IMG/VR virus record: IMGVR_UViG_3300044711_000113
Location: 1 to 55,743 of that record
From: a virus
Taxonomy: Duplodnaviria > Caudoviricetes
DNA: 55,743 bases
Reading direction: 5' to 3' (one strand)
The notes beneath the pieces are model-generated. The model was given only the letters and a program-made list of their open reading frames with translations. It searched no databases and was not told where the DNA came from. Below are positions 15,928 to 53,013 of the stretch, one piece after another. A program made the translations under genes and the position numbers. The first letter of the stretch is position 1; the number at the start of each line of letters is the position of its first letter.

Positions 15928-16890
15928 ATGACGTTTGCACCGGCCACCATGCTCGAGGTGCGCGCCTTCGTCGTCGCCGAGGACAAGGCCGCCCCGGTAC
16001 TCACGACGGACGAGGTGGGCATCGTCGGCGACGGCCCGCACGTCATCGCCGGCACCGGCTACCACCTCGGCAAAGATCAGCTGAAGTTCGACAAGAACCC
16101 GTACTCGGCCCGCACCGCGCGGGACAAGGCCGGCCTCGCCGACGCCGCGATCGCGAACGCCGCATGCGCGATCGACCTCGATGACGACTGGGATGAGCTG
16201 CGCCGCTTCTCCGGCTGGGCCGTCGAGCAATGCCGCAAGTCGGCGCCGGACACCCTCGACATCCGCGAGATCATTTACTCGCTGGATGGGGTCAACGTGT
16301 TGCACTGGGATCGGGAGAACGGGGTCACCTCAGCCCCGCAGCCTTCCAACCAGCTCGACCACCGCACCCACTCGCACATCAGCAAATACCGCGACTCGAC
16401 CCGCCGCTCGCTGCTGCCGCTGTTCAAGCGGTTCTACCGCGAGGTTGTGGGCGTCAACATTCCAGGAGACGACATGTCCATGTTCGTAAGCTTCGGCGAC
16501 GGCGAAAACGTGCCCGGCGGCCTGGACGAGGTGGCCGACTTCCAAACCGACCTGCGAGACCTCGGCGCCGACTTCACCCCTGTGGGCGGCATCGACGGCA
16601 AGTACGGCAAGGGCACACAGGCCCGCTACATCCAAATCGTGGGGGCTGAGCTGGCCGGCGACGGCACCCACTACAACTACCGCGCCCGTCGCTGGGTCAA
16701 GGACGAGCTTGAGAAGCGCCACATACTCGCCGTGGTCGCCGCATACCTCAAGGCCAACCCGCCCGCGGCCGGCGGCACCGTGCCGCCCGGCACCACGTTG
16801 AAGATCGGCGCCCACACTTTGGTGATCGAAACGGTGGAGGCGCACATCCCCGAGCAGACCGTCACCGTCATTGACCCTGCGACCACGTAG
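15928..16890 (+). CDS. Endolysin (putative Zn-peptidase plus peptidoglycan-binding domain)
   Basis: RBS AGGAG; 'GIVGD..H...GYH', 'ACAIDL', 'HRTHSHIS' metal-ligand motifs; PG-binding-like 'VADFQTDL...IDGKYGKGT'. Confidence 0.7.
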   Translation: MTFAPATMLEVRAFVVAEDKAAPVLTTDEVGIVGDGPHVIAGTGYHLGKDQLKFDKNPYSARTARDKAGLADAAIANAACAIDLDDDWDELRRFSGWAVEQCRKSAPDTLDIREIIYSLDGVNVLHWDRENGVTSAPQPSNQLDHRTHSHISKYRDSTRRSLLPLFKRFYREVVGVNIPGDDMSMFVSFGDGENVPGGLDEVADFQTDLRDLGADFTPVGGIDGKYGKGTQARYIQIVGAELAGDGTHYNYRARRWVKDELEKRHILAVVAAYLKANPPAAGGTVPPGTTLKIGAHTLVIETVEAHIPEQTVTVIDPATT

Positions 16891-16898
16891 GCGGCAAC

Positions 16899-16938
16899 AA
16901 AAAAGGGGCACCGTCCACATTGGACGGTGCCCCTTTTT
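16899..16938. terminator. Bidirectional intrinsic terminator
   Basis: AAAAAGGGGCACCGTCCA-CAT-TGGACGGTGCCCCTTTTT between convergent modules. Confidence 0.9.
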
Positions 16939-17085
16939 CACCCCAGGTAGGGGAATCGTGATCGGCGATTCCGGCAGTGCCCCGCCTGGCCTAGGCCGCG
17001 TTGGAGCATTCGAGCCTTCTCCTACCTGGGGCATGCCCACCGGTCCCGGCCCGGTGATCAAATCCGGTCCGCCGGCAGGTAGCCA

Positions 17086-17259
17086 TCATCTCGTGAAGAA
17101 CACGCCGGCCCCGATGCCGCAGCAGCACACAGCCACAGCCACGGCCACGGTCGCGCCGAACGCGAACCAGCAGCCCAGCTTGCGGCGGCGCTGCTGCTCG
17201 CGCGTCAACGTGCCGTAAGGCTGCCCATAGTGCCGCTTCGGGCGTCGCTGCTCGTTCAT
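17086..17259 (-). CDS. Small membrane protein
   Basis: ATG overlaps upstream stop; basic N-terminus then hydrophobic C-terminus. Confidence 0.5.
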   Translation of the reverse strand: MNEQRRPKRHYGQPYGTLTREQQRRRKLGCWFAFGATVAVAVAVCCCGIGAGVFFTR

Positions 17260-17546
17260 GCCGCCACCCGCGCGCGGGCGAGCGCGGGCGCGTAGTCCGC
17301 GCGGCGCACCGCCCACCATTCGACTAGTGCCGTCATGCTCTGCCGCTCGCGCTCCTGCTCGGCCCGCGCGGCGGCCCAGCGGGTCGACAGGCGGCCGTAC
17401 AGGGTCGGGGCGCGGTGACGGCCCACATACCGGCTCGGCCGGTTACGCAGCTTCCTGAAGCCATCCGCGGCCCGCTCGAGCAGATCGCCGACCATGCGGT
17501 CGATGCCGTTCAACGCGCCGGCCAGTTCGTCGATCGAGTTCATCAC
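17256..17546 (-). CDS. Hypothetical protein
   Basis: Coupled to the ATPase stop, RBS GGAGG; 'YVGRHR' motif. Confidence 0.55.
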   Translation of the reverse strand: MMNSIDELAGALNGIDRMVGDLLERAADGFRKLRNRPSRYVGRHRAPTLYGRLSTRWAAARAEQERERQSMTALVEWWAVRRADYAPALARARVAA

Positions 17547-18436
17547 TTCACCTCCGTCTTAGCCGCTGCGATCATGTCGCGGAGCAGCCTGGTCGCGATG
17601 TCGCCCAACGTGGACGGCTCGCCATGCTCGTCCGTCATGGGAGCGTTCCACTTGTTCAGATACAGCGCCTTAGCGCGTAGCTCGCGCAGCTCATCGGGCG
17701 TCTTGGCCTCGAACACCTCATCGCGCAGCTCCCACACCGTCACGGGCGCCTTGCCGTCCTCAAGCCACACCCGGTACTCGCGGCCCAGCTCCTCGGTGGG
17801 CCGCTCGACGATGCGACCGTCGAACCCGGCATAGGGCGACTTGGTGAACCGCAGGGTGTGCTCGCTGTCCAGCGTGGACACGATGCCCATCTCGTAGTCG
17901 AGCTTTTCGCGCTGGTCAGGTTTGGTGCCCATCTTGCGCGGCGTGTACTTGCCGTCCGGGCCGGGCTGCACCACCCACTCGGTCTTGACCCGCAACGTGA
18001 GGATCAAATGGCCGGCATGGGCGAGCATCGCCTCGACCATCTTCCGCTCGATCGGCCCCATCTCCTTCCAGCCGTTGGAGAACGTGCCACCCGACCGGCC
18101 GTCGGAACGCAGGTCGACCTGCTCGAGCATGCCCAGCGGCCCGGACCAGAACGACGACAGCGTGTCGACGATGGTCGTGTCGTAGGCGCAGCACGTCCCG
18201 AGCGCCTCGATGAGCTGCTCGGGATGGAAGTTGTCGGACATGTGCAGCACATCGAACTTGAACCGGTCGGCGAACACCAGCGATTGGCGCTGCACGGTGT
18301 CAATGACCGCGATGGTGTCGCCGAGCCCGGACGCGATGCTCAGCGCGGTGAACGTCTTACCGCTGCCGGCAGGCCCTTCCAAGACCCACCGGGCTTTTGC
18401 CTGCTCTTTGACGGCAGGCTCGAGAACGAACGCCAT
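17543..18436 (-). CDS. AAA-family ATPase, Sak4-like single-strand annealing recombinase
   Basis: Walker A 'GPAGSGKT', 'IAVIDT', Walker B 'IVDTLSSFW', 'HLILTLRVKTEW', 'KPDQRE..DYE' (AAA_24-type). Confidence 0.75.
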   Translation of the reverse strand: MAFVLEPAVKEQAKARWVLEGPAGSGKTFTALSIASGLGDTIAVIDTVQRQSLVFADRFKFDVLHMSDNFHPEQLIEALGTCCAYDTTIVDTLSSFWSGPLGMLEQVDLRSDGRSGGTFSNGWKEMGPIERKMVEAMLAHAGHLILTLRVKTEWVVQPGPDGKYTPRKMGTKPDQREKLDYEMGIVSTLDSEHTLRFTKSPYAGFDGRIVERPTEELGREYRVWLEDGKAPVTVWELRDEVFEAKTPDELRELRAKALYLNKWNAPMTDEHGEPSTLGDIATRLLRDMIAAAKTEVK

Positions 18437-18467
18437 GATCTTCTCCCTTGCTCTCCTGATTCGTGGT

Positions 18468-18527
18468 GCCCCGGGCGCGCTGCCCTCTACAGGAAGGAGA
18501 GCTATTCGCGGGCGCGCTGCCCGGGGC
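18468..18527 (-). ncRNA. Long hairpin displaying anti-leader loop CCUUCCUGU
   Basis: Minus strand: GCCCCGGGC(A)GCGC ... CTCT-CCTTCCTGT-AGAG ... GCGC-GCCCGGGGC. Confidence 0.5.
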
Positions 18528-18598
18528 CGTGGGGCACTCGAGCGTCTTGCTTTGGCGGTCGGCGGCCCGCCGCAGATGGTCCACGCTCGTGTGCCTCG

Positions 18599-18755
18599 CG
18601 GGGATGCCGGGAGTCGAACCCGGACCGATCCTGACGGCCGTTGGCGTATCGGGGCTGCGAACCATGGGCGACTACCGACACCTCCTTAGAAGTGACGGGG
18701 TGCCCTCCGATGTGCCTCGGGCTACCAGCTGCTCTGCCGATTGAGCTTCATCCCC
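18599..18755 (-). ncRNA. 157-nt tRNA-like RNA with anticodon arm replaced by an extended structured domain
   Basis: Acceptor GGGGATG/CATCCCC plus G; D-arm GCTC-AATCGGCA-GAGC; T-arm CCGGG-TTCGACT-CCCGG; CTGGTAGCC/GGCCGTCAG closes the insert. Confidence 0.75.
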
Positions 18756-18814
18756 TCCGTGACCTGCAGGCCCGCCAACGGGGAACCGCGGAGCCTGCAG
18801 GCCGAACACCCGGT

Positions 18815-18839
18815 GGGTGTCTACACGGAAGATACACCC
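18815..18839. promoter_or_regulatory. Palindromic operator overlapping leftward -10 (TATCTT)
   Basis: GGGTGT-N13-ACACCC. Confidence 0.65.
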
Positions 18840-19024
18840 TCGGGTGGGTTGTCACCTCGGGCCTCACCAGCCCGAGCCGCGGCCGTGGCGCACTCGTCAC
18901 GCCCGCAGGTCCACCGCCGCCACGACCCCAGATTGCCCGGATCGATACGCAACGGCCGACCACACCACACACAGACCGAAGCCCCCACAGCCCGCAGACC
19001 GGACTGTGAGGGCTTCGGCGTCAC
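18821..19024 (-). CDS. Small putative Zn-binding protein
   Basis: GTGA coupling; CVWC...CGRDEC. Confidence 0.45.
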   Translation of the reverse strand: MTPKPSQSGLRAVGASVCVWCGRPLRIDPGNLGSWRRWTCGRDECATAAARAGEARGDNPPEGVSSV

Positions 19025-19404
19025 CTCTGCACCGCCGTACGCATCGACGCCGTGGACGGCGACGGTGTGGGCTGCGGCGCTGGATTCTTACGGTGCGGGC
19101 ACGCGGCCACAGCGGCGATCACCAGCACCACCAGCAGGACGAATCCGGCTTTGTTACTCCGCGACATCGGAGGAGGCTTGCTCATCTCCGACCCCCAACC
19201 ACCCGGTCGACCATGGAATTCTGGTCGTCGACGATCGCCTGCCCGGTTCTGCAGGCGCACGCCTGCCCGCGGGGCAAGCAGCACGTTCTCGATGACACGC
19301 CAGACCAGGCCGAGCTTGACCACCTCGTCGCCGCATTCCAGCGTGCGCAGGTGGACAGCCCCGGTGAGCTGGGGGCCGATGTCGGTGTCGAGCACCTTGG
19401 CCAT
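19021..19404 (-). CDS. Hypothetical protein with C-terminal TM segment (may be two genes)
   Basis: ATG after ACAGGAAGGGAG leader; internal ATG (MSKPPP) precedes a hydrophobic stretch. Confidence 0.55.
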   Translation of the reverse strand: MAKVLDTDIGPQLTGAVHLRTLECGDEVVKLGLVWRVIENVLLAPRAGVRLQNRAGDRRRPEFHGRPGGWGSEMSKPPPMSRSNKAGFVLLVVLVIAAVAACPHRKNPAPQPTPSPSTASMRTAVQR

Positions 19405-19435
19405 TTGGTTCTCCCTTCCTGTGGGTTTTCTTGCG

Positions 19436-19487
19436 CGGGTGCCCGGGAGTCGAACCCGGGCAAGACCGGCCTGGTTACCGGTCACCC
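19436..19487 (-). ncRNA. Mini tRNA-like element (52 nt, no anticodon arm)
   Basis: GGGTG ACCGG-TAACCAGG-CCGGT CTTG CCCGGG-TTCGACT-CCCGGG CACCC G. Confidence 0.7.
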
Positions 19488-19578
19488 TCCTTTGGCGCTG
19501 GCTTAGCTCCGGCCAGGATCAGCACGCGGTACCAAAATGTGCTGACTGTGAGCCGAATCCAGGGCTTAGACATCGTCG

Positions 19579-19812
19579 TCACCCCTTCGCCTTGCAGTAC
19601 GGGCTCCTGCACCCGTGCCCTTCACCGTGCGCTTCGTCCCAGACGCTGTCGATGACCGCGCCGGCCACCGATCCCACGACGTCGATGAATTCGTCGCGTT
19701 GAGAACCGCTCAGCTTGGCAAGCCAAGCCTTCATCTCCGGCACCTCGAGCGCGACGCCTGAAGCCTTGAGCCGGGCGACGTCCTTCACGGTCAAACCACG
19801 CGGTATAGGCAT
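19579..19812 (-). CDS. Small hypothetical protein (array cargo)
   Basis: ATG after ACAGGAAGGAG leader; 77 aa. Confidence 0.65.
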   Translation of the reverse strand: MPIPRGLTVKDVARLKASGVALEVPEMKAWLAKLSGSQRDEFIDVVGSVAGAVIDSVWDEAHGEGHGCRSPYCKAKG

Positions 19813-19835
19813 GGCCTGCTCCTTCCTGTTGGGGC

Positions 19836-19901
19836 TGCTCTGCGTGGGCGCCCGGGGCTTGAACCCGGGTGCTTGCCTGCCTTTCGGCCGCCCGTGGTGC
19901 T
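19836..19901. repeat. 66-bp exact direct repeat, copy 1
   Basis: Identical to 21104-21169; contains a mini-tRNA. Confidence 0.9.
19845..19893 (-). ncRNA. Mini tRNA-like element (49 nt)
   Basis: GGGCG GCC-GAAA-GGC AGGCAAGCA CCCGGG-TTCAAGC-CCCGGG CGCCC A. Confidence 0.7.
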
Positions 19902-20145
19902 AGACGAGGAATCTGGTCTCCAACGCGAGCTGATAGCCCATGTTCGCGAGGCTGGTCTCGATGATCTCGCTGTCGCCGTCGTTGCGTCCGTCGAACTCCT
20001 CGGTGCGTACAACCTGCTGACGCACCGAGCCGCCGCCGGACGTGTAGGTGACCACGACACCATCGGGTGTGAAGAGCACGACCGCGAGCTCGATGCGCCC
20101 GTCTTCGCCTTCACGCCGCCACACCTCGTTGGTGACCTGCATCAT
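19900..20145 (-). CDS. Small hypothetical protein (array cargo)
   Basis: ATG after ACAGGAAGGGG leader; 81 aa. Confidence 0.65.
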   Translation of the reverse strand: MMQVTNEVWRREGEDGRIELAVVLFTPDGVVVTYTSGGGSVRQQVVRTEEFDGRNDGDSEIIETSLANMGYQLALETRFLV

Positions 20146-20165
20146 TTCCCTGTCCCCTTCCTGTC

Positions 20166-20190
20166 GGGTGTATTCCCCGCGAACACACCC
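20166..20190. promoter_or_regulatory. Palindromic operator inside the array (no clear -10)
   Basis: GGGTGT-ATTCCCCGCGAAC-ACACCC, next to a strong hairpin at about 20194-20229. Confidence 0.65.
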
Positions 20191-20234
20191 GAGGTTGCGA
20201 GGGTACGGCCGAAACCGCACCCTCGCAACACCCG

Positions 20235-20411
20235 CTAGTCGTACAGGGCCTCGACGCCCGCGCGCATGCGCAGCACGTCCTCGACCTTGGATCGGATTTC
20301 CCGCGCTCGCGCGTCGACCGATTCGGCCGTCGCCCGGATGACGCCGCTCCGCTCGTCGACCAGCGACGCCGCAGCGACGGCGATAATCAGGTATTCCTTC
20401 AACTCGTCCAT
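20235..20411 (-). CDS. Small hypothetical protein, 58 aa (array cargo; not in ORF track)
   Basis: Manually translated MDELKEYLIIAV...EALYD*; RBS GGAAGGAGG. Confidence 0.6.
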   Translation of the reverse strand: MDELKEYLIIAVAAASLVDERSGVIRATAESVDARAREIRSKVEDVLRMRAGVEALYD

Positions 20412-20427
20412 GGTGGACCTCCTTCCG

Positions 20428-20475
20428 CAGGTGGCCGGGAGTCGAACCCGGAAGGCCCCAACTGCGGCCCCACCC
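20428..20475 (-). ncRNA. Mini tRNA-like element (48 nt)
   Basis: GGGTGG GGCC-GCAGTTGG-GGCC TT CCGGG-TTCGACT-CCCGG CCACCT G; GCAGTTGG resembles a D-loop. Confidence 0.7.
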
Positions 20476-20484
20476 TCCTTTTGC

Positions 20485-20829
20485 CTAGCCCTCGATCCAC
20501 GCTGGCGGCGCTGTGCGCGTGACCGGCTGACGCTCCTCGAGCGCCGTCCACACGTCGCCAGAGGCGAGCCTGCGCTGCCCGTTGGGCACCGTGAGCCCGA
20601 GCGCTTCCTCGGCCTCCATCGAGACGATCCAGCACACCCGGTAGAGCATGCTGGGCTCGTCGAGCTCCGGTATCCAGCCCTGCGCCCAGTCGGCGCCGAG
20701 CGAGACGGCCATGTCCGCGATCTCGCGGGCGTGGTAGCGCCAGTTCTCCGGCGAGCGGTGCGAGCGGTGATGCGACACGTACATTTCGTCGCCGAACTGC
20801 GCGCGGATCGTGATCGGCTTGTCGTTCAT
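20485..20829 (-). CDS. Hypothetical protein, 114 aa (array cargo)
   Basis: ATG (MNDKPITIRAQ) after ACAGGAAGGGG leader. Confidence 0.65.
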   Translation of the reverse strand: MNDKPITIRAQFGDEMYVSHHRSHRSPENWRYHAREIADMAVSLGADWAQGWIPELDEPSMLYRVCWIVSMEAEEALGLTVPNGQRRLASGDVWTALEERQPVTRTAPPAWIEG

Positions 20830-20860
20830 GGTTCTGGCCCCTTCCTGTGGGTTGTTTGCG

Positions 20861-20907
20861 CGGGTGGCCGGGAGTCGAACCCGGTGAGCTCCTGGTGCAG
20901 CCCACCC
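20861..20907 (-). ncRNA. Mini tRNA-like element (47 nt)
   Basis: GGGTGG GCT-GCACCAGG-AGC TCA CCGGG-TTCGACT-CCCGG CCACCC G. Confidence 0.7.
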
Positions 20908-20914
20908 TCCTCGT

Positions 20915-21085
20915 TCAGTTGATGCAGCAGAGGTAAGATCCACACGGCTGGTCGGGTAGCGGATGTAGCCCGTCGGCCACTCGGTGGATGTGCCCGCAGT
21001 CGGGGCAGAACCCCGGCTCGTCGGGCGCGACCACCTCGTAGACACCGTCGGCCACCTGCACCGTGGGTCCCTGGTACTCGTCCAT
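20915..21085 (-). CDS. Small Cys/His-rich protein, 56 aa (array cargo; not in ORF track)
   Basis: Manually translated MDEYQGPTVQ...CPDCGHIH...CGSYLCCIN*; RBS GAGGAG. Confidence 0.6.
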   Translation of the reverse strand: MDEYQGPTVQVADGVYEVVAPDEPGFCPDCGHIHRVADGLHPLPDQPCGSYLCCIN

Positions 21086-21103
21086 GACGCTCTCCTCTCG
21101 TTG

Positions 21104-21169
21104 TGCTCTGCGTGGGCGCCCGGGGCTTGAACCCGGGTGCTTGCCTGCCTTTCGGCCGCCCGTGGTGCT
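21104..21169. repeat. 66-bp exact direct repeat, copy 2
   Basis: Identical to 19836-19901. Confidence 0.9.
21113..21161 (-). ncRNA. Mini tRNA-like element (49 nt)
   Basis: Identical to the element at 19845-19893. Confidence 0.7.
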
Positions 21170-21426
21170 CAGTGATCCATGCCGATCATTCGCCCGAACC
21201 AGACTGCGGCGGTCGCGACGGCGTTCCCGCGGGCGCCGGCTTCGCCCATGTACTTCGCCGCGATCGCCTCGGCGAGCGCCATGTCAAGCGAGTGGTAGTA
21301 CGTGCTGCTTGGCTTGGCGTCGCCGATGGTGAAGCGGAAGAGGTTGGGCTCGTCACGGTTCCAGTTGGGTACCTCGTCGATCGTGTACTCGCCGACGGTC
21401 CAGCTGTTGACGATGCGGTCGTTCAT
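21169..21426 (-). CDS. Small hypothetical protein (first array cargo)
   Basis: ATG after ACAGGAAGGA leader; 85 aa. Confidence 0.65.
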   Translation of the reverse strand: MNDRIVNSWTVGEYTIDEVPNWNRDEPNLFRFTIGDAKPSSTYYHSLDMALAEAIAAKYMGEAGARGNAVATAAVWFGRMIGMDH

Positions 21427-21460
21427 GATCTCTGTCCTTCCTGTTGGGGATCGTGCTGCG

Positions 21461-21564
21461 TGGCCCTGGAGGGAGTCGGACCCTCCCGCGTGCTTCTCGG
21501 TGGCTCGTAGTGCGCCATTGCCCCACCGCGTAGGTGGAAGCCGCTGCTTTCATGCCCGCGGGCC
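21461..21564 (-). ncRNA. 104-nt tRNA-like element with expanded central domain
   Basis: GGCCC ... GGAGGG-TCCGACT-CCCTCC A GGGCC A, followed by CGCA like the other elements. Confidence 0.55.
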
Positions 21565-21570
21565 GTGCTT

Positions 21571-21595
21571 GGGTTGCTACATCAAGGATACACCC
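21571..21595 (-). promoter_or_regulatory. Operator overlapping -10 (TATCCT) of the putative array promoter
   Basis: GGGTTG-N13-ACACCC; TATCCT on the minus strand at 21590-21585, about 20 nt upstream of the first tRNA-like element. Confidence 0.6.
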
Positions 21596-21696
21596 GAACC
21601 TGACGCGGGGCGTTGGGGCTTGTGTCGGGTTCCCGACTGAGCGTCCACGGCGCGGGCACCGTGCCCTGGTAGGCGCGGTGCCCGGCCGGTAGGCGA

Positions 21697-21900
21697 TCAG
21701 GCGATGATCAGGTGCGGGTTCAGCTCACGGACCGCCTCCTCGAGCGCGAGCGCCTGCTCGAGCCGGCCGTAGAACGCATAGCCGATCTGGCAGGCGTAAC
21801 TCGGTTCCGACTTGGCCCCGAGCCTGCATGAGGCGCAGATCTCGAGGTGTGTGTTGAGGTCGTCGATAGCGAGCTGAATGTCGTCCTTGATCTTTAACAT
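21697..21900 (-). CDS. Small hypothetical protein
   Basis: RBS GAGGAGGAG; MLKIKDDIQL..., H/CxxC/C residues; hairpin follows at about 21654-21683. Confidence 0.6.
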   Translation of the reverse strand: MLKIKDDIQLAIDDLNTHLEICASCRLGAKSEPSYACQIGYAFYGRLEQALALEEAVRELNPHLIIA

Positions 21901-21967
21901 GTGATCTCCTCCTCTGATTGCCCACGGCGTGTGCCCCGCCGCCGAGCGGGGCACCACCGGTAGACCT

Positions 21968-22270
21968 TCAGCCTTGAAGTTCTGCGATCTCTTCGGCCTG
22001 CATCTTCGGCAGGATGACCTTGTAGTAAGGCCCGTAGTCGCCTGCCCATTCAGGTCCCGTTCCGTGGTTGTAGATCGTTGCCCAGGGGCCTAGCCACCAG
22101 TCCCGATCGTCGGTCCAGACCTGCCACTCGTACCCGTAGGAGTCCTCGGGCGTCTCGCCGACCCACATCGCGTTGACGCTGTATCCGGCTTGCTTGAGCA
22201 TCTCTGCCCAGCGGCGGCACTCTGCGTTGGTGGGGTCGATCTCTCGCTGCGCTTCCTCGCTGTACTGCAT
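21968..22270 (-). CDS. Hypothetical Trp/Tyr-rich protein
   Basis: RBS AAAGGAG; 100 aa; own AT-rich upstream region. Confidence 0.65.
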   Translation of the reverse strand: MQYSEEAQREIDPTNAECRRWAEMLKQAGYSVNAMWVGETPEDSYGYEWQVWTDDRDWWLGPWATIYNHGTGPEWAGDYGPYYKVILPKMQAEEIAELQG

Positions 22271-22299
22271 TGTGCTCTCCTTTGTTCTGTTCTTTCCCT

Positions 22300-22350
22300 G
22301 TGCTTACTATTCTACCCTATATAACGCCCTGCGTTGGGTTTTTGTTCCAC
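22300..22350 (-). promoter_or_regulatory. Putative strong leftward promoter
   Basis: AT-rich island with -10 TAGAAT at 22314-22309. Confidence 0.5.
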
Positions 22351-22379
22351 CTAGAACTGTCGGATGGGCGACAAAACAA

Positions 22380-22412
22380 GCGAGGCCCTGACCGCGCCGG
22401 TCAGGGCCTCGC
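22380..22412 (-). terminator. Putative terminator
   Basis: GCGAGGCCCTGACC-loop-GGTCAGGGCCTCGC followed by TTGTTTT on the minus strand. Confidence 0.7.
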
Positions 22413-22425
22413 TGTTCACCAGGGT

Positions 22426-22617
22426 TTACATGGCCTCCCAGCTAACGAGCTCGATCTCGTTCCACCGTGACCGGAGCATCGTCTCCGCGTGCGATGCCGC
22501 CTCGCGTAGCCGCCGCTCGATAAGCGCCTCGGTGGGCTCGAAGGGAATCTCGACGCGCCGATGTGCCTCGTAACCCTGGAAGCGGTAGGTGAGCCGATAA
22601 GCCAGCGACTTCGCCAT
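22426..22617 (-). CDS. Small hypothetical protein, 63 aa
   Basis: ATG after GCAGGAAGGAG leader. Confidence 0.6.
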   Translation of the reverse strand: MAKSLAYRLTYRFQGYEAHRRVEIPFEPTEALIERRLREAASHAETMLRSRWNEIELVSWEAM

Positions 22618-22634
22618 GCGCTTCTCCTTCCTGC

Positions 22635-22659
22635 GGGTGTGTCCGACGAGGATACACCC
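22635..22659. promoter_or_regulatory. Palindromic operator overlapping leftward -10 (TATCCT)
   Basis: GGGTGT-GTCCGACGAGGAT-ACACCC. Confidence 0.7.
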
Positions 22660-22670
22660 GCGGCGACGGA

Positions 22671-23291
22671 TCAACCAGGGTCAGCACCAACCAGCGAACC
22701 TGCGATCGCGTCGGCGCGGCATTGCGGGCACCGCAGCTCCCCGTCGAGCTTCACGCCCGCGAGCCCGTGCACGCATGCCGGCGCCCGCGCGCCCGCGCGC
22801 GAAACGGACGGGATCTCTACGGACTGTATTGGCGGACTTCCACGTCCGCCTGACGGCCCTGTAGGTCCTCCTAGGCGGACTTCCACGTCCGCCTGACGGC
22901 CCTGTAGGTCCTCCTTAGCCGGCTCGGGCATCGGAAGGGGGACCAGGAAGTCCGCCTGCCTGCACCTGCGGCAACGGCAATCACCCGCGGCCGGGGTGAA
23001 ATGCGGCAGGGTGAACACCCGCGGCCGTCCAGGAACCGCGTACACCGGCCGTCCCCGCCGATCCCGCCCGAACTCAAGACGCACCTCGAAACCCCGCTCA
23101 GCAAGCCGTGACAGGGCGTGGCGCAGCCCCCGCTCATCTAGGCAGCAGCGGCGCAGCATCTCGGCACCGTCGATCGTGGCGGCCCGCTCACCTACACGGC
23201 TGCGCTCGGCGATCGCCAACAGGATCAGCCGCTCAGCCGCAGTCATGTCGGGAGCATTGCTGAACACCTCCTCGACCAGCTCATAGGCCAT
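22671..23291 (-). CDS. Replication initiator-like (winged-helix Rep) protein
   Basis: 'MAYELVEEVFSNAPDMTAAERLILLAIAE...LRHALSRLAERG' resembles phage Rep N-termini; internal iterons; C-terminal C/H-CxxC. Confidence 0.6.
   Translation of the reverse strand: MAYELVEEVFSNAPDMTAAERLILLAIAERSRVGERAATIDGAEMLRRCCLDERGLRHALSRLAERGFEVRLEFGRDRRGRPVYAVPGRPRVFTLPHFTPAAGDCRCRRCRQADFLVPLPMPEPAKEDLQGRQADVEVRLGGPTGPSGGRGSPPIQSVEIPSVSRAGARAPACVHGLAGVKLDGELRCPQCRADAIAGSLVGADPG
22830..22957. repeat. Iteron array, putative replication origin
   Basis: 42-bp direct repeat (22831-22872, 22874-22915) built from AGGCGGAC-N6-GTCCGCCT-like units; a further variant at 22936-22957. Confidence 0.7.
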
Positions 23292-23452
23292 CAGGCACCC
23301 GCGCAGGTATCGAGGAAGTTCCACCGTGTCGGCGGCGCACGGTAATATGCATCAGGTACCTCCGAAGTCGTCGTTTGGAGGGTGTTTCCACAGGAGGCCA
23401 CCCGTTCGCGGCGGGTGGTTTCCGTCTTTCTAGGCCCGGATCATGCCACGGT

Positions 23453-23743
23453 TCACGCGTCGCGTTCACCTAGCCGCGCGGCGTCCATCGCCCGCCACTG
23501 CGCCCGTGACGCCTCATCCTGCGTGACATGAATCCTGTTCTTCTTCGGCAACGGGCACCGTGCGCAACGCACCGTGTAGCCGTCCCACGCCCGCGCGAAC
23601 ACATGCTCACGCAGACCCAACTCCTCCAACTCCGGCGCGGGCGCCGGCACAAACCTGGTCGCCATCAGGGACCTGCCCGAAGGCGATAACCATCCAGGGC
23701 TCGCGGCACCCCGCCGGTAGAAAATCGGTAGATCATGCTGCAC
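23453..23743 (-). CDS. Hypothetical Zn-binding protein
   Basis: 'HVF...CARCPLPKKNRIH' motif; coupled to neighbours. Confidence 0.5.
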   Translation of the reverse strand: MQHDLPIFYRRGAASPGWLSPSGRSLMATRFVPAPAPELEELGLREHVFARAWDGYTVRCARCPLPKKNRIHVTQDEASRAQWRAMDAARLGERDA

Positions 23744-24128
23744 TCCTCTCGAGCACCGCGACGTCGCGGGGCAACGGCTCCTGGTATGACCCTTCGCACG
23801 GCCACAGTCGGCCGTCCTCCGGATTTTCCTGCCACCCGTGCGGGCGCAGAACGGGATTACTCGGCCCGTAGGTCGAGAACATGCCCTTGCAGTAAGGGCA
23901 TTGGTGCTGGTCGACTCCGGGCGGCCACAGCCCCTGTGAGCGGCCCCACGACTCGACGGCGTGCTCGGACCACAGCGGCGGCTCCTCGGACACGTCGGGA
24001 GGGCACAGCCGGCGCGCCTGCGGGTCGGTGTTGTTGTTCAGCGCGTTCTTGCGCCACCTGCGCGCCCGGAAGTAGCGCACCTGCAGCTTCTCGGCTACAC
24101 CCATCAGGTTTAACGGCTGCCTGCTCAC
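23733..24128 (-). CDS. HTH DNA-binding protein with C-terminal Zn-binding motif
   Basis: 'LNLMGVAEKLQV...RWR...PPD...PLWSEHAVESW' resembles AlpA/Xis-type HTH; CPYC...H...C. Confidence 0.6.
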   Translation of the reverse strand: MSRQPLNLMGVAEKLQVRYFRARRWRKNALNNNTDPQARRLCPPDVSEEPPLWSEHAVESWGRSQGLWPPGVDQHQCPYCKGMFSTYGPSNPVLRPHGWQENPEDGRLWPCEGSYQEPLPRDVAVLERSAA

Positions 24129-24142
24129 GGTCGGGTCTCCCT

Positions 24143-24226
24143 ATCTGTGTTCTCCAAGAATACATTTCACGATCGTGGCGCGCGCGAACCCGCGCGGCCT
24201 TGCATGTATTGTCTGTGAACACACTC
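24143..24226. promoter_or_regulatory. Divergent promoters, each overlapped by an operator
   Basis: TGT-GTTCTCCAAGAAT-ACA (24146-24164; leftward -10 TATTCT) and TGT-ATTGTCTGTGAAC-ACA (24205-24223; rightward -10 TATTGT). Confidence 0.65.
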
Positions 24227-24250
24227 CAACTCCCAAGAAAGCAGCCCGTG

Positions 24251-24388
24251 ATGTGTGAGTCCAGCCCTTGGCAGATCCTGCTCTCGCCCCTGTTGTGGCT
24301 CGTCTCAGGCTTCGTCGTCGGCCAGATCGTGCGCTTGACCGTGCGGCGCATGGTCCGAGAAGAGCTCGACCGGAGGGCGTCCAAGTGA
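24251..24388 (+). CDS. Small membrane protein
   Basis: First rightward ORF; hydrophobic segment. Confidence 0.45.
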   Translation: MCESSPWQILLSPLLWLVSGFVVGQIVRLTVRRMVREELDRRASK

Positions 24389-24606
24389 TCCACAAAAAGG
24401 AAGAGGCGCTCGTCGCGGCGGCGGTCGACCGGCTGCTGCGGCACATGCACGGCTTCGACCCGTCAACGCAGTCGTCGGCGGCCATGTCCGCGGCGAAGGC
24501 CGACGGCGCGTTTAAGGAGCGCCTCGAGGCGGCGTTCCGGATCGTGGTCACCAACTTTGACCCGGCGCCGCTCGTCGCCGCGGCGCTCGCCGAGCTGGAC
24601 CAGTAG
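24385..24606 (+). CDS. Hypothetical protein
   Basis: GTGA coupling, RBS GGAGG. Confidence 0.5.
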   Translation: MIHKKEEALVAAAVDRLLRHMHGFDPSTQSSAAMSAAKADGAFKERLEAAFRIVVTNFDPAPLVAAALAELDQ

Positions 24607-24615
24607 GGCTATGCC

Positions 24616-25011
24616 GTGCCGAGGACCTTGTCGAAGCGGCTCACATACGAGGCGAAACGTGGCCGCGACCGTGATGTGCGATCGGTCACCGAGTCTCGGC
24701 TGCTCGGCCTGGTCAGATGGGTTCGCATCACCGCCGGCCTCTACACGCTCGGGGCGACGCAGGGCACCCTGCACATACTCGCCTACCAGCAGTTTTATGT
24801 GTGCCGCGCGGTGCAGGCGTGGCAGCTCACCGAGTCCACCTTCGCGACCGTCTGGATCGATGCCGGCCACGAAGGCGTTCACCTGTTCTACGGCGAGCAA
24901 CTCGCCCTGGAGAAGTTCGCGCTCCTATGCGCGGCGCTCGGGGCCAAAGGCGACCCGTCGAACTACCGCAGCCACATCTACGAAGGAGACGACGACTATG
25001 ACGACGAGTAA
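24616..25011 (+). CDS. Hypothetical protein
   Basis: 131-aa ORF in a tightly packed operon. Confidence 0.5.
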   Translation: MPRTLSKRLTYEAKRGRDRDVRSVTESRLLGLVRWVRITAGLYTLGATQGTLHILAYQQFYVCRAVQAWQLTESTFATVWIDAGHEGVHLFYGEQLALEKFALLCAALGAKGDPSNYRSHIYEGDDDYDDE

Positions 25012-25516
25012 CCCGCTCTCGACCGCAGAGGACGCCGCCGGCTACCTGCAGGAGCGTTCGCGGGTCCGGCCCCATCCAGTGTTCAACGACGACGCCCTGC
25101 ACAACCTGCTCGCCGCATGCGCTGCGTGGGCCGCGCAGGCGCGCCAGGTCCACAAGCTGGCCGACACGGTCACGATGGACGTCCGGGTGCCCTACGACCC
25201 GCCGCTGCTTGACCTGTGGGAGCAAGCCGAGCCTTTGCTCGCCGCCGAATTCATTGGCCTGGACTGGTCGGACTGGCAGGTGTGGACTGTCGACCGGTCA
25301 CTGATCGGCGACGATTGGAACCCCGACTCGTTCGTGCTCTACGCCCGAGGCGAATACCGCGTCGGCGTGAGCTGGATCGGCCTCGGCCTACAGAACGCCA
25401 CCGTCAACCGGGTCGAGCCCGAGCTCGCCCGGCGTGCCGCGGCGCGGCTGCTCGCGATCGCCGAGCTGGCCGAGCGCCGGCAGGCCACCGCCCTCGAGGG
25501 TGGTGTGCGGCCGTGA
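24998..25516 (+). CDS. Hypothetical protein
   Basis: ATG after AAGGAG. Confidence 0.55.
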   Translation: MTTSNPLSTAEDAAGYLQERSRVRPHPVFNDDALHNLLAACAAWAAQARQVHKLADTVTMDVRVPYDPPLLDLWEQAEPLLAAEFIGLDWSDWQVWTVDRSLIGDDWNPDSFVLYARGEYRVGVSWIGLGLQNATVNRVEPELARRAAARLLAIAELAERRQATALEGGVRP

Positions 25517-26781
25517 CCACGTTCGAGACGCGTCTACGCGACGCCATCCATAAGGCCCTGGCCCGCAACCCCACCGATGGAAGCCACCGCTACGTCAGCA
25601 CGTGGCAGATCGACTCGGTACTCGGCGCGGTCCTCGCCGAGCTGGGCAACTCTGCACCGATCCTCGCCGTCCCCGAGCTGGACGAGGCGGAGCTCGAGGC
25701 CGCGATGGGCCGGCTCCGCGAGCACAGGACACCCCGGTTCTTGGTGAACCTGCCCGCGCCGACGTTCCACACGATCGCGCCCAAGAAGATGCCCGACGGG
25801 TCGATCGTCGTCGCGCTGCCACCCGATGGTGCGCTGGTACGCCACCGCCACGTGTGGCACCTCGACAAGACGACTGTTGTCCGCTCCTGGAAGGGCAGCT
25901 GCTACCGGTGCGCGTTCGAATACCTTGACGGTTCGGTCTGCGACCAAATTTGGACCACCTACGGCGGCGCCCAGATGCCCGACTGGGGCGAGCGCATGTT
26001 CACCTCCGGGCCGTACTTCGAAACCCCGCCGCAGGGTGACCTGTTCGACCAGATCGAGAAGGCCGCCACCGACTACCGGTATGAGCACCGCGTCCCGCCC
26101 GGCACCATGCTCAAGGTCATCGTCACGGGCAATATGGGTGCCCTGCGCGCGGCTGCCGGCGGCCGCGGTCTCCCGGTCGTCTCCGACGACCACATCACCA
26201 TGTGGTTGGACATTCGCCGCCTGGAGCTCGCCGAGGTCTACGGCCCTACCGGTCCGGCCGCGGGCGTCATGGTCTACCAGCCGGGCACCTTCGTCGCCGG
26301 CAAGCCCAAGCGGACCGTCACCCGCGAAGAGGCGCTCGCCGACCCCCGCGGCCGAACAGCGCCCTACCCGAAACCGGACTGCACACAGTGCGATGGCAGC
26401 GGCGTCGCCGGCATCCCGAACAGTCACGCGCTCGGCCCGTGCCCCAATGAGGCCTGCTGGACCGAACCCGGGCCGGGCCGGGTGAGGCTACCCGAAAACG
26501 CGGTCGCTGAGGCGATCGCAGCGGCACCGCGCCGCTACGACGGCGAAGACTGGACGATCACCGTCCAAGGGGCACCCGGCGAGCAAGAGCTCGCCATATC
26601 TCACGTGCACTGTTGGCGCCCGTCGATGGAAGATGGCCAATTCTGCCTGTGGGTCGACCCCGACGGGCAACGCTGCGCCGTCCCGTGGACGCTCGCCGAG
26701 GGCAGCAGCCGAACCGTGTGGTGGTCGATGCCCCGCACCATTGCTGTTTCGTCGGTCGTCGAACCGACCGAACCCTCCTAG
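25513..26781 (+). CDS. Hypothetical multi-domain protein with Cys/His motifs
   Basis: GTGA coupling; CTQCDGSG and repeated H-x-H-x-W...C segments. Confidence 0.55.
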   Translation: MTTFETRLRDAIHKALARNPTDGSHRYVSTWQIDSVLGAVLAELGNSAPILAVPELDEAELEAAMGRLREHRTPRFLVNLPAPTFHTIAPKKMPDGSIVVALPPDGALVRHRHVWHLDKTTVVRSWKGSCYRCAFEYLDGSVCDQIWTTYGGAQMPDWGERMFTSGPYFETPPQGDLFDQIEKAATDYRYEHRVPPGTMLKVIVTGNMGALRAAAGGRGLPVVSDDHITMWLDIRRLELAEVYGPTGPAAGVMVYQPGTFVAGKPKRTVTREEALADPRGRTAPYPKPDCTQCDGSGVAGIPNSHALGPCPNEACWTEPGPGRVRLPENAVAEAIAAAPRRYDGEDWTITVQGAPGEQELAISHVHCWRPSMEDGQFCLWVDPDGQRCAVPWTLAEGSSRTVWWSMPRTIAVSSVVEPTEPS

Positions 26782-51445: not shown

Positions 51446-51517
51446 CCTGATAATGTGCTGCCCGGAAGTCTTGGTAGGGGTGTGTTCAGTCATAAGAAAC
51501 ACCTGCCGGGGCAATAG

Positions 51518-51552
51518 AAAAGCCCGAGGGACTGGAGACCCCTCGGGCTTTT
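51518..51552. terminator. Bidirectional intrinsic terminator
   Basis: AAAAGCCCGAGGG...CCCTCGGGCTTTT. Confidence 0.85.
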
Positions 51553-51554
51553 CG

Positions 51555-52691: not shown

Positions 52692-52723
52692 CGGAGTAGG
52701 CTCGGCCCGGTACACCTCTCCTC

Positions 52724-52764
52724 AAAAGAGCACCCCCGCCCGGGTAAGGCGGGGGTGCTTTTTT
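52724..52764. terminator. Intrinsic terminator
   Basis: GAGCACCCCCGCC...GGCGGGGGTGCTTTTTT. Confidence 0.85.
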
Positions 52765-53013
52765 GTGCCCCAAACACGCGGCGCTACTATGACGGGTATG
52801 CGCACGTCGTGATTTTCTTCCTTCCTGATAGACCGCTCCCGGACACCACGACCCCCGTGGCCGGGAGCGTTCTTTGTGTCTGGGGAAGGTGACGCTATCC
52901 TGACCGTGTCGATCACCGATGGTGATCCATGTGTCGCAGGCGCAGCGCTAAGGGCCGGCCGGACCGGAAACACCGCGAGATATTCCCGTCCGTGTTTAAG
53001 GAGCCCTGCCGCA

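Follow-up and report, generated by a model that had tools for sequence, protein, structure and literature searches.

Why would a phage that sets the same short motif ahead of five or six of its small genes also carry one copy of that motif in reverse, and carry it in the loop of a G+C-rich hairpin? The hairpin in question belongs to an uncultured soil phage represented by a 55,743-bp virus record, which we analysed over its whole length and refer to as the window. The record has a G+C content of 66.7% and a completeness of 86% (CheckV), and its G+C content and protein matches point to an actinobacterial host. A sequence-only reading of the locus had proposed that the hairpin ends the transcript of the tagged gene array, is released as a small RNA and shuts off the tagged genes by pairing with their leaders. 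We find that the complementarity behind this proposal is real and that the proposed release is not supported, and we consider it possible, at a probability of about 0.4, that the hairpin is an anti-leader RNA element, comparable to the c4 and 6C RNAs, that damps translation of the tagged genes; that it is a structural leader hairpin or a relic is nearly as likely.

Results

The hairpin lies between a tRNA-like element and an ATPase gene

The plus strand of the phage carries tail genes up to ~16.9 kb, and a block of minus-strand genes extends from ~24,128 down to 17,256. Since the hairpin sits inside this block, we take the minus strand as its RNA sense. Along the direction of transcription, the last ORF of the gene array (19021-19404, minus strand) is followed by a terminator-like hairpin, a 25-bp palindrome, the tRNA-like element, a further hairpin (18597-18533), the hairpin studied here and, finally, an AAA-ATPase gene, so that the hairpin has the 157-nt tRNA-like element on its 5' side and the ribosome-binding site of the ATPase on its 3' side (Table 1). 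Two minus-strand genes (17543-18436 and 17256-17546) come after the hairpin, which therefore does not stand at the far end of the transcription block; the earlier reading had put it at the distal end of the array transcript. A consensus scan for sigma-70-type promoters found none in 16500-25000; by eye alone, a putative -35/-10-like pair can be read near 18839.

Table 1. Features of the hairpin locus and the tagged gene array, with positions in the window
Feature	Position	Strand	Details
96-aa ORF	17256-17546	-	next after the ATPase gene
AAA-ATPase gene, 297 aa	17543-18436	-	PF13479; phrog_1366, E 1.4e-58; directly 3' of the hairpin
ATPase leader	18437-18467	-	AGGAGAGC at 18450-18457; GGGAG Shine-Dalgarno 7 nt before ATG
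RNA hairpin	18468-18527	-	G+C stem of 17 bp at the base (9 + 8, an A bulged out on both sides); above it an internal loop and a weak 4-bp helix closing the 9-nt loop
14-nt direct repeat GGGCAGCGCGCCCG, 3' arm copy	18472-18485	-	from the repeat scan
Exposed CU-rich apical segment CUCUCCUUCCUGU	18489-18501	-	18489-18497, its core, perfectly complements ACAGGAAGG
Segment absent from one X11 contig, 211 nt	18501-18711		481-nt contig, depth 3.4, joins 18500 to 18712
14-nt direct repeat GGGCAGCGCGCCCG, 5' arm copy	18509-18522	-	from the repeat scan
Second hairpin	18533-18597	-	between the tRNA-like element and the hairpin at 18468-18527
tRNA-like element, 157 nt	18599-18755	-	intact (perfect) acceptor, D and T arms; 93 nt instead of the anticodon arm
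Terminator-like hairpin	18976-19018	-	arms of 19 nt with 89% complementarity; tail rich in GU; follows the last array gene, ahead of the tRNA-like element
ACAGGAAGG leader	19414-19422	-	9 nt before the ATG at 19404
ACAGGAAGG leader	19821-19829	-	gene 19579-19812; 8 nt before ATG; 11-nt match to the loop
ACAGGAAGG leader	20156-20164	-	gene 19900-20145
ACAGGAAGG leader	20840-20848	-	gene 20485-20829
ACAGGAAGG leader	21436-21444	-	gene 21169-21426
Sixth leader CAGGAAGG	22626-22633	-	gene 22426-22617; 11-nt match including GAG A
Palindromes, ~25 bp	6528, 18814-18839, 20165-20191, 21570-21595, 22634-22659, 28495, 30155, 39556, 51478, 52146		

Several of the elements around the hairpin are unusual in themselves. 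The tRNA-like element scores 37.5 bits against the Rfam tRNA model (gathering threshold 29); 93 nt take the place of the 13-nt anticodon region, leaving no cloverleaf with an anticodon arm, and ARAGORN reports 0 tRNA genes across the window. The insert holds a strong Shine-Dalgarno-like run, UAAGGAGGUG. Fragments corresponding to the T arm and the 3' side of the acceptor stem of a tRNA-like structure recur on the minus strand at 19437-19469, 19836-19901, 20429-20461, 20862-20894 and 21104-21169, where they stand just upstream of several small-gene leaders, and the two 66-nt fragments among them (19836-19901 and 21104-21169) are 100% identical; they look like tRNA-type punctuation or the cassette borders of a mosaic array. 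A further family consists of ~25-bp palindromes of the form GGGTGTRTY-N7-RAYACACCC, with ~10 copies in the genome, several of them intergenic and two directly adjoining leaders (20164 and 22632). These look like operators for a phage regulator and may be compared with stoperators or the ESAS inverted repeats.

A rigid stem exposes a CU-rich loop

A long GC stem with a CTCT/AGAG apex had been described at this place, and the sequence is indeed as described; we computed its fold on the minus strand. Positions 18527-18519 pair with 18468-18476 (9 bp) and, past a bulged A on either side, positions 18517-18510 pair with 18477-18485 (8 bp), all pairs of the resulting 17-bp stem having a probability of ~1. 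The apex is closed by one of two alternative and weak 4-bp helices, CUCU/AGAG or AUAG/CUGU, and under either of them the CU-rich run 18493-18501 stays unpaired at 0.72-0.99. The 17-bp stem is retained in folds of 91, 192, 394 and 588 nt, the energy of the hairpin in the 91-nt fold being -41.7 kcal/mol. Considering its G+C content, the energy of the hairpin alone is ordinary (z -1.47; equalled by 18/200 shuffles); the folding of the non-coding 588-nt stretch 18437-19024 is exceptional (z -5.05, 0/100 shuffles), and minus-strand RNA of this stretch is 30 kcal/mol more stable than plus-strand RNA.

The two arms of the stem are direct copies of the 14-nt repeat GGGCAGCGCGCCCG, which can pair together because the repeat is nearly palindromic. 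These arms are exactly the two perfect copies that the window holds, and a role of the repeat as a dispersed operator is thereby discarded. A covariance-model search finds no Rfam family that matches the hairpin.

The 17-bp stem supplies the G+C-rich hairpin expected of an intrinsic terminator, and neither a U-tract 3' of the stem nor the end of a transcription unit goes with it: the sequence 3' of the stem starts with CACCACGAAUCAGG, and the hairpin is absent from the intrinsic-terminator hits of a consensus scan. It is also unlike the phage's own terminators: A/T runs border at least three of these, and another one, at 22379-22413, is followed by a T-rich tail. The hairpins 16900-16938, 51517-51553 and 52723-52765 are perfect or near perfect, are bordered by A runs at one flank and by T runs at the opposite flank, and look like canonical bidirectional terminators, the first of them standing where the late genes of the plus strand converge with the minus-strand block. 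Because the U-tract is absent and the ribosome-binding site of the ATPase follows within 31 nt, we read the hairpin as part of an mRNA leader, and the notion of a released small RNA finds no support.

The loop is the antisense of a tag shared by small genes

The window contains six copies of the motif ACAGGAAGG, five of them minus-strand and one plus-strand, where 0.18 copies are expected and none of 100 shuffles reaches six. All five minus-strand copies sit 8-11 nt ahead of an ATG. A sixth leader, at 22626-22633, reads CAGGAAGGAGA and matches the loop over 11 nt, and the tag is thus carried by five or six small genes, all of them, like the hairpin RNA, of minus-strand sense. The lone plus-strand copy, at 18489-18497, lies inside the hairpin, and the 55.7 kb hold no other reverse copy; its uniqueness, previously claimed for the surrounding region, holds for the whole window. 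Read as RNA, the 9-nt loop CCUUCCUGU (18497->18489) is the perfect complement of the shared leader ACAGGAAGG, and the 11-nt pairing earlier noted with the leader of gene 19579-19812 is likewise correct.

The products of the tagged array give few clues of their own. Apart from the product of 19021-19404, the array proteins belong to no PHROG families, and their sole Pfam hit, PF22689, is below threshold (16.9 vs 27 bits). The ORF 19021-19404 runs from a plausible N-terminus of 40 aa through an Arg/Pro/Gly-rich stretch into a lipoprotein-like signal peptide; contigs of two sequencing runs have an 11-nt insertion at 19234, so that in the window a deletion may have fused two genes into one frame.

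We computed the pairing of the loop with the phage leaders, to which the apex is complementary over 9-13 nt in all six cases. Between the 24-nt apex and the six leaders, the predicted duplex energies average -21.8 kcal/mol (from -18.7 to -28.3); for shuffled apices the value is -11.2 +/- 2.1 kcal/mol, and 0/500 equal the real apex. When 69 putative gene starts, a set that left out two leader-bearing genes, are ranked by their pairing with the apex, leader-bearing genes take ranks 1-4. The earlier claim of an exposed loop complementary to the leaders has thus survived its test. The apex also finds a partner closer by: its segment GCUCUCCU is complementary to AGGAGAGC (18450-18457) in the ATPase leader, with a duplex energy of -16.0 kcal/mol.

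The hairpin resembles an inverted array unit

On the plus strand, the sequence 18455-18510 can be aligned with the T-arm 3' half and the leader of the unit at 19829. The alignment score of 21.75 is not reached by any of 300 shuffles (null mean 12.8, maximum 19.8); the 11-nt motif is unbroken in the alignment, and the flanks contain gaps and mismatches. Given this alignment and the 14-nt direct repeat that forms the arms, the hairpin probably goes back to an inverted duplication of the 3' end of one array unit, the copy having been shortened and subsequently closed to form a stem.

Close relatives are few and their arrays are mosaic

Among metagenome contigs, we found two relatives only, L002 and L003, whose identity to the window is 97-99%. 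Both have exactly the same hairpin as the window, which is uninformative at so high an overall identity. Upstream of 19555, L002 diverges into another cassette in which the tRNA-like 3' end is followed by GAAGGAGG and not by the tag; behind this 3' end and the GAAGGAGG leader, positions 1-240 of L002 hold a different, small Cys-rich ORF. The array is thus mosaic among relatives, with the L002 break at 19555 and, in sequencing run X11, joints within the array; the latter connect 19555 with 20405 and 19623 with 19818, cassettes having been swapped or rearranged at unit borders.

The comparison with sequencing runs covered 4 of the 24 listed runs, in the form of contigs and with low word shares. 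Over the parts covered, the hairpin is unchanged (18509-18527 in X14, 18468-18500 in X11). One contig of X11 has a gap at the hairpin (Table 1), and the depth of the run is zero across 18611-18711. The gap removes the 5' arm of the hairpin, the whole hairpin 18533-18597 and the 3' two-thirds of the tRNA-like element; since the acceptor stem of the tRNA-like element spans the gap, we read the X11 form as a deletion. In the fold of this form, the motif is predicted to be paired, with 11 of its 13 positions unpaired at only 0.00-0.24. Being a single contig of low depth, it may be erroneous; should it be genuine, the stem would be dispensable in one population.

Searches farther afield returned little. 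Near and distant DNA searches of the phage collection gave no relative and one partial match of 8%. The ATPase protein found no match among viral contigs, and neither the protein nor the alignment found one among genome contigs; with an alignment of eight ATPases, 41 loci were recovered from viral contigs, the top identity being 47%. Relatives P0002-P0008 of the ATPase are at 65-79%, and the best match in the phage collection comes from Cluster F-type phages (~41%). In L004, the sequence upstream of the ATPase is coding and holds zero copies of CAGGAAGG. Scanning viral contigs for exact patterns, we obtained 0 matches for the loop, 0 for the 5' half of the tRNA-like element and 2 and 0 for two leader architectures, the two matches being unrelated low-G+C phages with ordinary tRNAs.

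Cluster K mycobacteriophages show a parallel layout

A similar arrangement exists in mycobacteriophages of Cluster K, to which the window phage is unrelated. In these, a 13-bp start-associated sequence (SAS) occupies the ribosome-binding position of 11-19 non-structural genes, and four K1 phages are reported to have one SAS copy each in the opposite orientation with no gene attached (Pope et al. 2011, PMC3203893). In more recent work, SAS are still described as having no known function (PMC11373665, PMC12699233), and according to the RNA-seq study of Adephagia, late transcription begins in the gap between genes 92 and 93 (PMC11373665). The portions of main text available to us from these three papers (PMC3203893, PMC11373665, PMC12699233) contain no discussion of a hairpin context of the reverse SAS. 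We find that the reverse SAS of Anaya lies within the 10-nt loop of a G+C hairpin and that the reverse SAS of Adephagia (record position ~58,682-58,694) is likewise in a 10-nt hairpin loop, in the 432-nt gap between genes 92 and 93 (z -8.15), both at places with no canonical gene start. This gap (L063 1948-2379) is strongly structured throughout.

The two systems share a private, asymmetric motif at the ribosome-binding position, in one orientation and in front of a subset of non-structural genes with long upstream gaps, about half of which have an inverted repeat upstream; they also share the one extra reverse copy that has no gene start and stands in a hairpin loop, in Anaya and Adephagia as in the window. 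The sequences themselves are different: the SAS motif GGGATAGGAGCCC is absent from the window, with 2 matches at 2 mismatches (1.35 expected), and the elements upstream of the leaders are tRNA-like 3' halves or 25-bp palindromes in the window and ESAS in Cluster K.

The Cluster K region has 150 matching records, from which we sampled 15 genomes with identities from 100% to ~70%. An anti-SAS loop is present in 7 of them, another CU-rich loop in 3 and an unrelated loop in 1, and 4 have no alignable hairpin. Across 14 distinct sequences of the stem, 92.2% of 204 cells pair, a level reached by 0/500 shuffles (slid controls 36-49%), and the covariation score of 0.231 is reached by 1/500; compensatory changes on both sides are seen at 4 of the 16 pairs, a count that 56 of 500 shuffles also reach. 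Across this sample, we looked for covariation between loop and leader and found none, the loop varying and the leader motif being constant: Amohnition keeps 17 SAS copies, 12 of them exact, yet has a different CU-rich loop that would pair only with a bulge. A further hairpin, GGCCCCGGC...GUUGGGGCC, can be recognised in the alignment of the 15 genomes, Anaya among them, and visibly shows compensatory changes when subclusters are compared. The Anaya region (L047 34680-35080) matched no Rfam family.

Discussion

Our preferred interpretation places the hairpin within a leftward early or replication operon, where it would be both the trailer of the tRNA-like element and part of the 5' leader of the AAA-ATPase. 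The rigid 17-bp stem would present the CU-rich loop for a pairing of 9-13 nt with the extended Shine-Dalgarno tag ACAGGAAGG; the pairing would occlude the ribosome-binding sites, and the tagged genes would be damped as a set, either in trans or inside one long transcript. We infer that the hairpin is transcribed with or after the array, that the pairing takes place in the cell and that it lowers translation. What favours the anti-leader interpretation is the combination of five motifs at the ribosome-binding position with a single reverse copy in an exposed loop, the duplex energies, the top ranks of leader-bearing genes, the strong minus-strand structure of the surrounding stretch, the unlikeness to the phage's own terminators, the unbroken state of the motif amid decayed flanks and the parallel in Cluster K. 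Several observations weaken it. The X11 form without the 5' arm means that a related population may do without the stem, and descent from an inverted unit could explain the reverse copy with no need for a function; the energy of the hairpin is ordinary, there is no terminator to release it, the cassette of L002 is untagged (GAAGGAGG) and a full anti-SAS loop is found in just 7 of the 15 Cluster K genomes, among which loop and leader do not covary.

Among known RNA systems, the hairpin may be compared with the c4 RNA of phages P1 and P7, which is described as being cut from a longer operon transcript by RNase P and as having loops that pair with mRNA sites within that operon, one loop covering a ribosome-binding site (PMC5320573). 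The window hairpin resembles it in having a loop complementary to the ribosome-binding regions of genes in the same operon; in the published account, however, c4 has three stem-loops and two target-binding loops and lies upstream of its targets, whereas the window has one loop for several upstream genes. The 6C RNA (B11), on the other hand, is reported to be a chaperone-independent small RNA of high-G+C Gram-positives whose C-rich hairpin loops pair with purine-rich mRNA sites (PMC6486639). It is a stand-alone host RNA with its own ends, while the loop in the window is CU-rich and fits a tag private to the phage. Rfam searches gave no C4 match (E <= 1 for 16000-26000 and E <= 5 for 18400-19100) and no 6C match in the same two regions, where tRNA was the sole Rfam family matched, and the hairpin belongs to neither family. 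That the hairpin RNA may be processed is suggested solely by the adjacent tRNA-like element. In Escherichia coli, 3'ETS-leuZ is an RNA derived from a tRNA trailer that is released by RNase E and acts as a sponge for small RNAs. The likeness to the window lies in a base-pairing segment directly 3' of a tRNA-type structure in the precursor; in the window, however, what stands upstream is a tRNA-like RNA of non-canonical form, and the RNA further downstream runs into a protein-coding gene.

Other explanations of the hairpin do not need the loop to act on the array. It could be a purely structural element of the ATPase leader, such as a 5' stabiliser, a processing site for RNase III or another enzyme, or a pause or attenuation hairpin, with a loop that is incidental. 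This account, which we regard as unlikely though deserving serious attention, agrees with a long rigid stem placed 31 nt before the ATPase ribosome-binding site, behind the tRNA-like element and the second hairpin and in a stretch that is structured overall, and the loop content may then have been inherited from the inverted unit copy; it leaves unexplained why the motif is intact over 11-13 nt when the flanks have decayed, and why it is placed exactly at the apex, and it turns the Cluster K parallel into a coincidence. A less likely rival, still a serious one, is that the hairpin has no function at all and is the relic of an inverted, internally deleted T-arm 3' half and leader left by recombination among array units, in which the local direct duplication of a near-palindromic 14-mer made a stem by chance. 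The alignment score to unit 19829, above the null maximum (21.75 and 19.8), the arms made of a 14-nt direct repeat, the mosaic array (L002 from 19555 and the X11 joints) and the X11 contig lacking half of the stem would all be expected of a relic; a perfectly kept motif would not, nor would an element unchanged in L002, L003 and the covered parts of X14 and X11, in a compact phage genome and amid strongly strand-biased structure.

The complement in the ATPase leader makes it conceivable that the apex acts in cis, with a pseudoknot of GCUCUCCU and AGGAGAGC just upstream of the ATPase Shine-Dalgarno sequence tuning translation of that gene. The 8-nt complement is perfect and only 37 nt downstream, so that proximity would favour the pairing, and its energy is -16.0 kcal/mol; the duplex is nevertheless weaker than each of the six leader duplexes, the paired site is upstream of the likely Shine-Dalgarno sequence, the latter is mostly open in the ordinary 192-nt fold, and CU-rich loops match purine-rich leaders generally, all of which makes a cis role quite improbable. 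We give even less credit to an intrinsic terminator or attenuator lacking a U-tract that would end the tRNA-like or array transcript ahead of the ATPase. Strong G+C hairpins behind a tRNA-like gene do invite the idea, and terminators of the early region of actinophage phiC31 are said to lack poly-U tails. Here, however, the tail CACCACGAAUCAGG differs from the A/T runs or the T-rich tail of the phage's own terminators, and the next gene begins 31 nt further on, no promoter-like site having been found; moreover, mycobacterial RNA polymerase reportedly requires a U-tract (PMC3993855). Finally, the plus-strand sequence ACAGGAAGGAG could simply be the ribosome-binding site of a plus-strand gene, an objection already foreseen in the sequence-only reading. 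It makes a good Shine-Dalgarno sequence, and an ATT 6 nt downstream opens a frame of 61 codons; but there is no ATG, GTG or TTG within 30 nt, the nearest being 31 nt off, the third-position G+C of the overlapping ORFs is 0.63-0.76 (0.78-0.89 in two real genes of the block), and these ORFs are antisense to the tRNA-like element and the start of the ATPase. The chances of this explanation are very slight.

Should the hairpin turn out to be merely structural or a relic, the finding would be an ordinary one, though even then it would show how recombination of cassettes bounded by tRNA-like elements can create antisense copies of regulatory tags. If the loop does pair with the leaders, on the other hand, a single short RNA would control an entire class of phage genes by way of their ribosome-binding sites, as a one-to-many antisense switch within an operon. 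The anti-leader idea is testable because Cluster K1 shows the same layout: these phages can be cultured on a laboratory strain and engineered, RNA-seq data exist for them, and the purpose of SAS has been a question since 2011. More broadly, and as a tentative and on the whole doubtful proposal, actinobacterial phages may more than once have evolved a two-part translational regulon, in which a private ribosome-binding tag on early accessory genes is matched by an antisense-loop hairpin that heads the next operon. That operon would hold the replication genes in the window phage and would be the late transcript in Cluster K1, and the switching-on of the next stage would silence the tagged genes together. 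If this were true, the start-associated sequences of mycobacteriophages would gain their missing partner.
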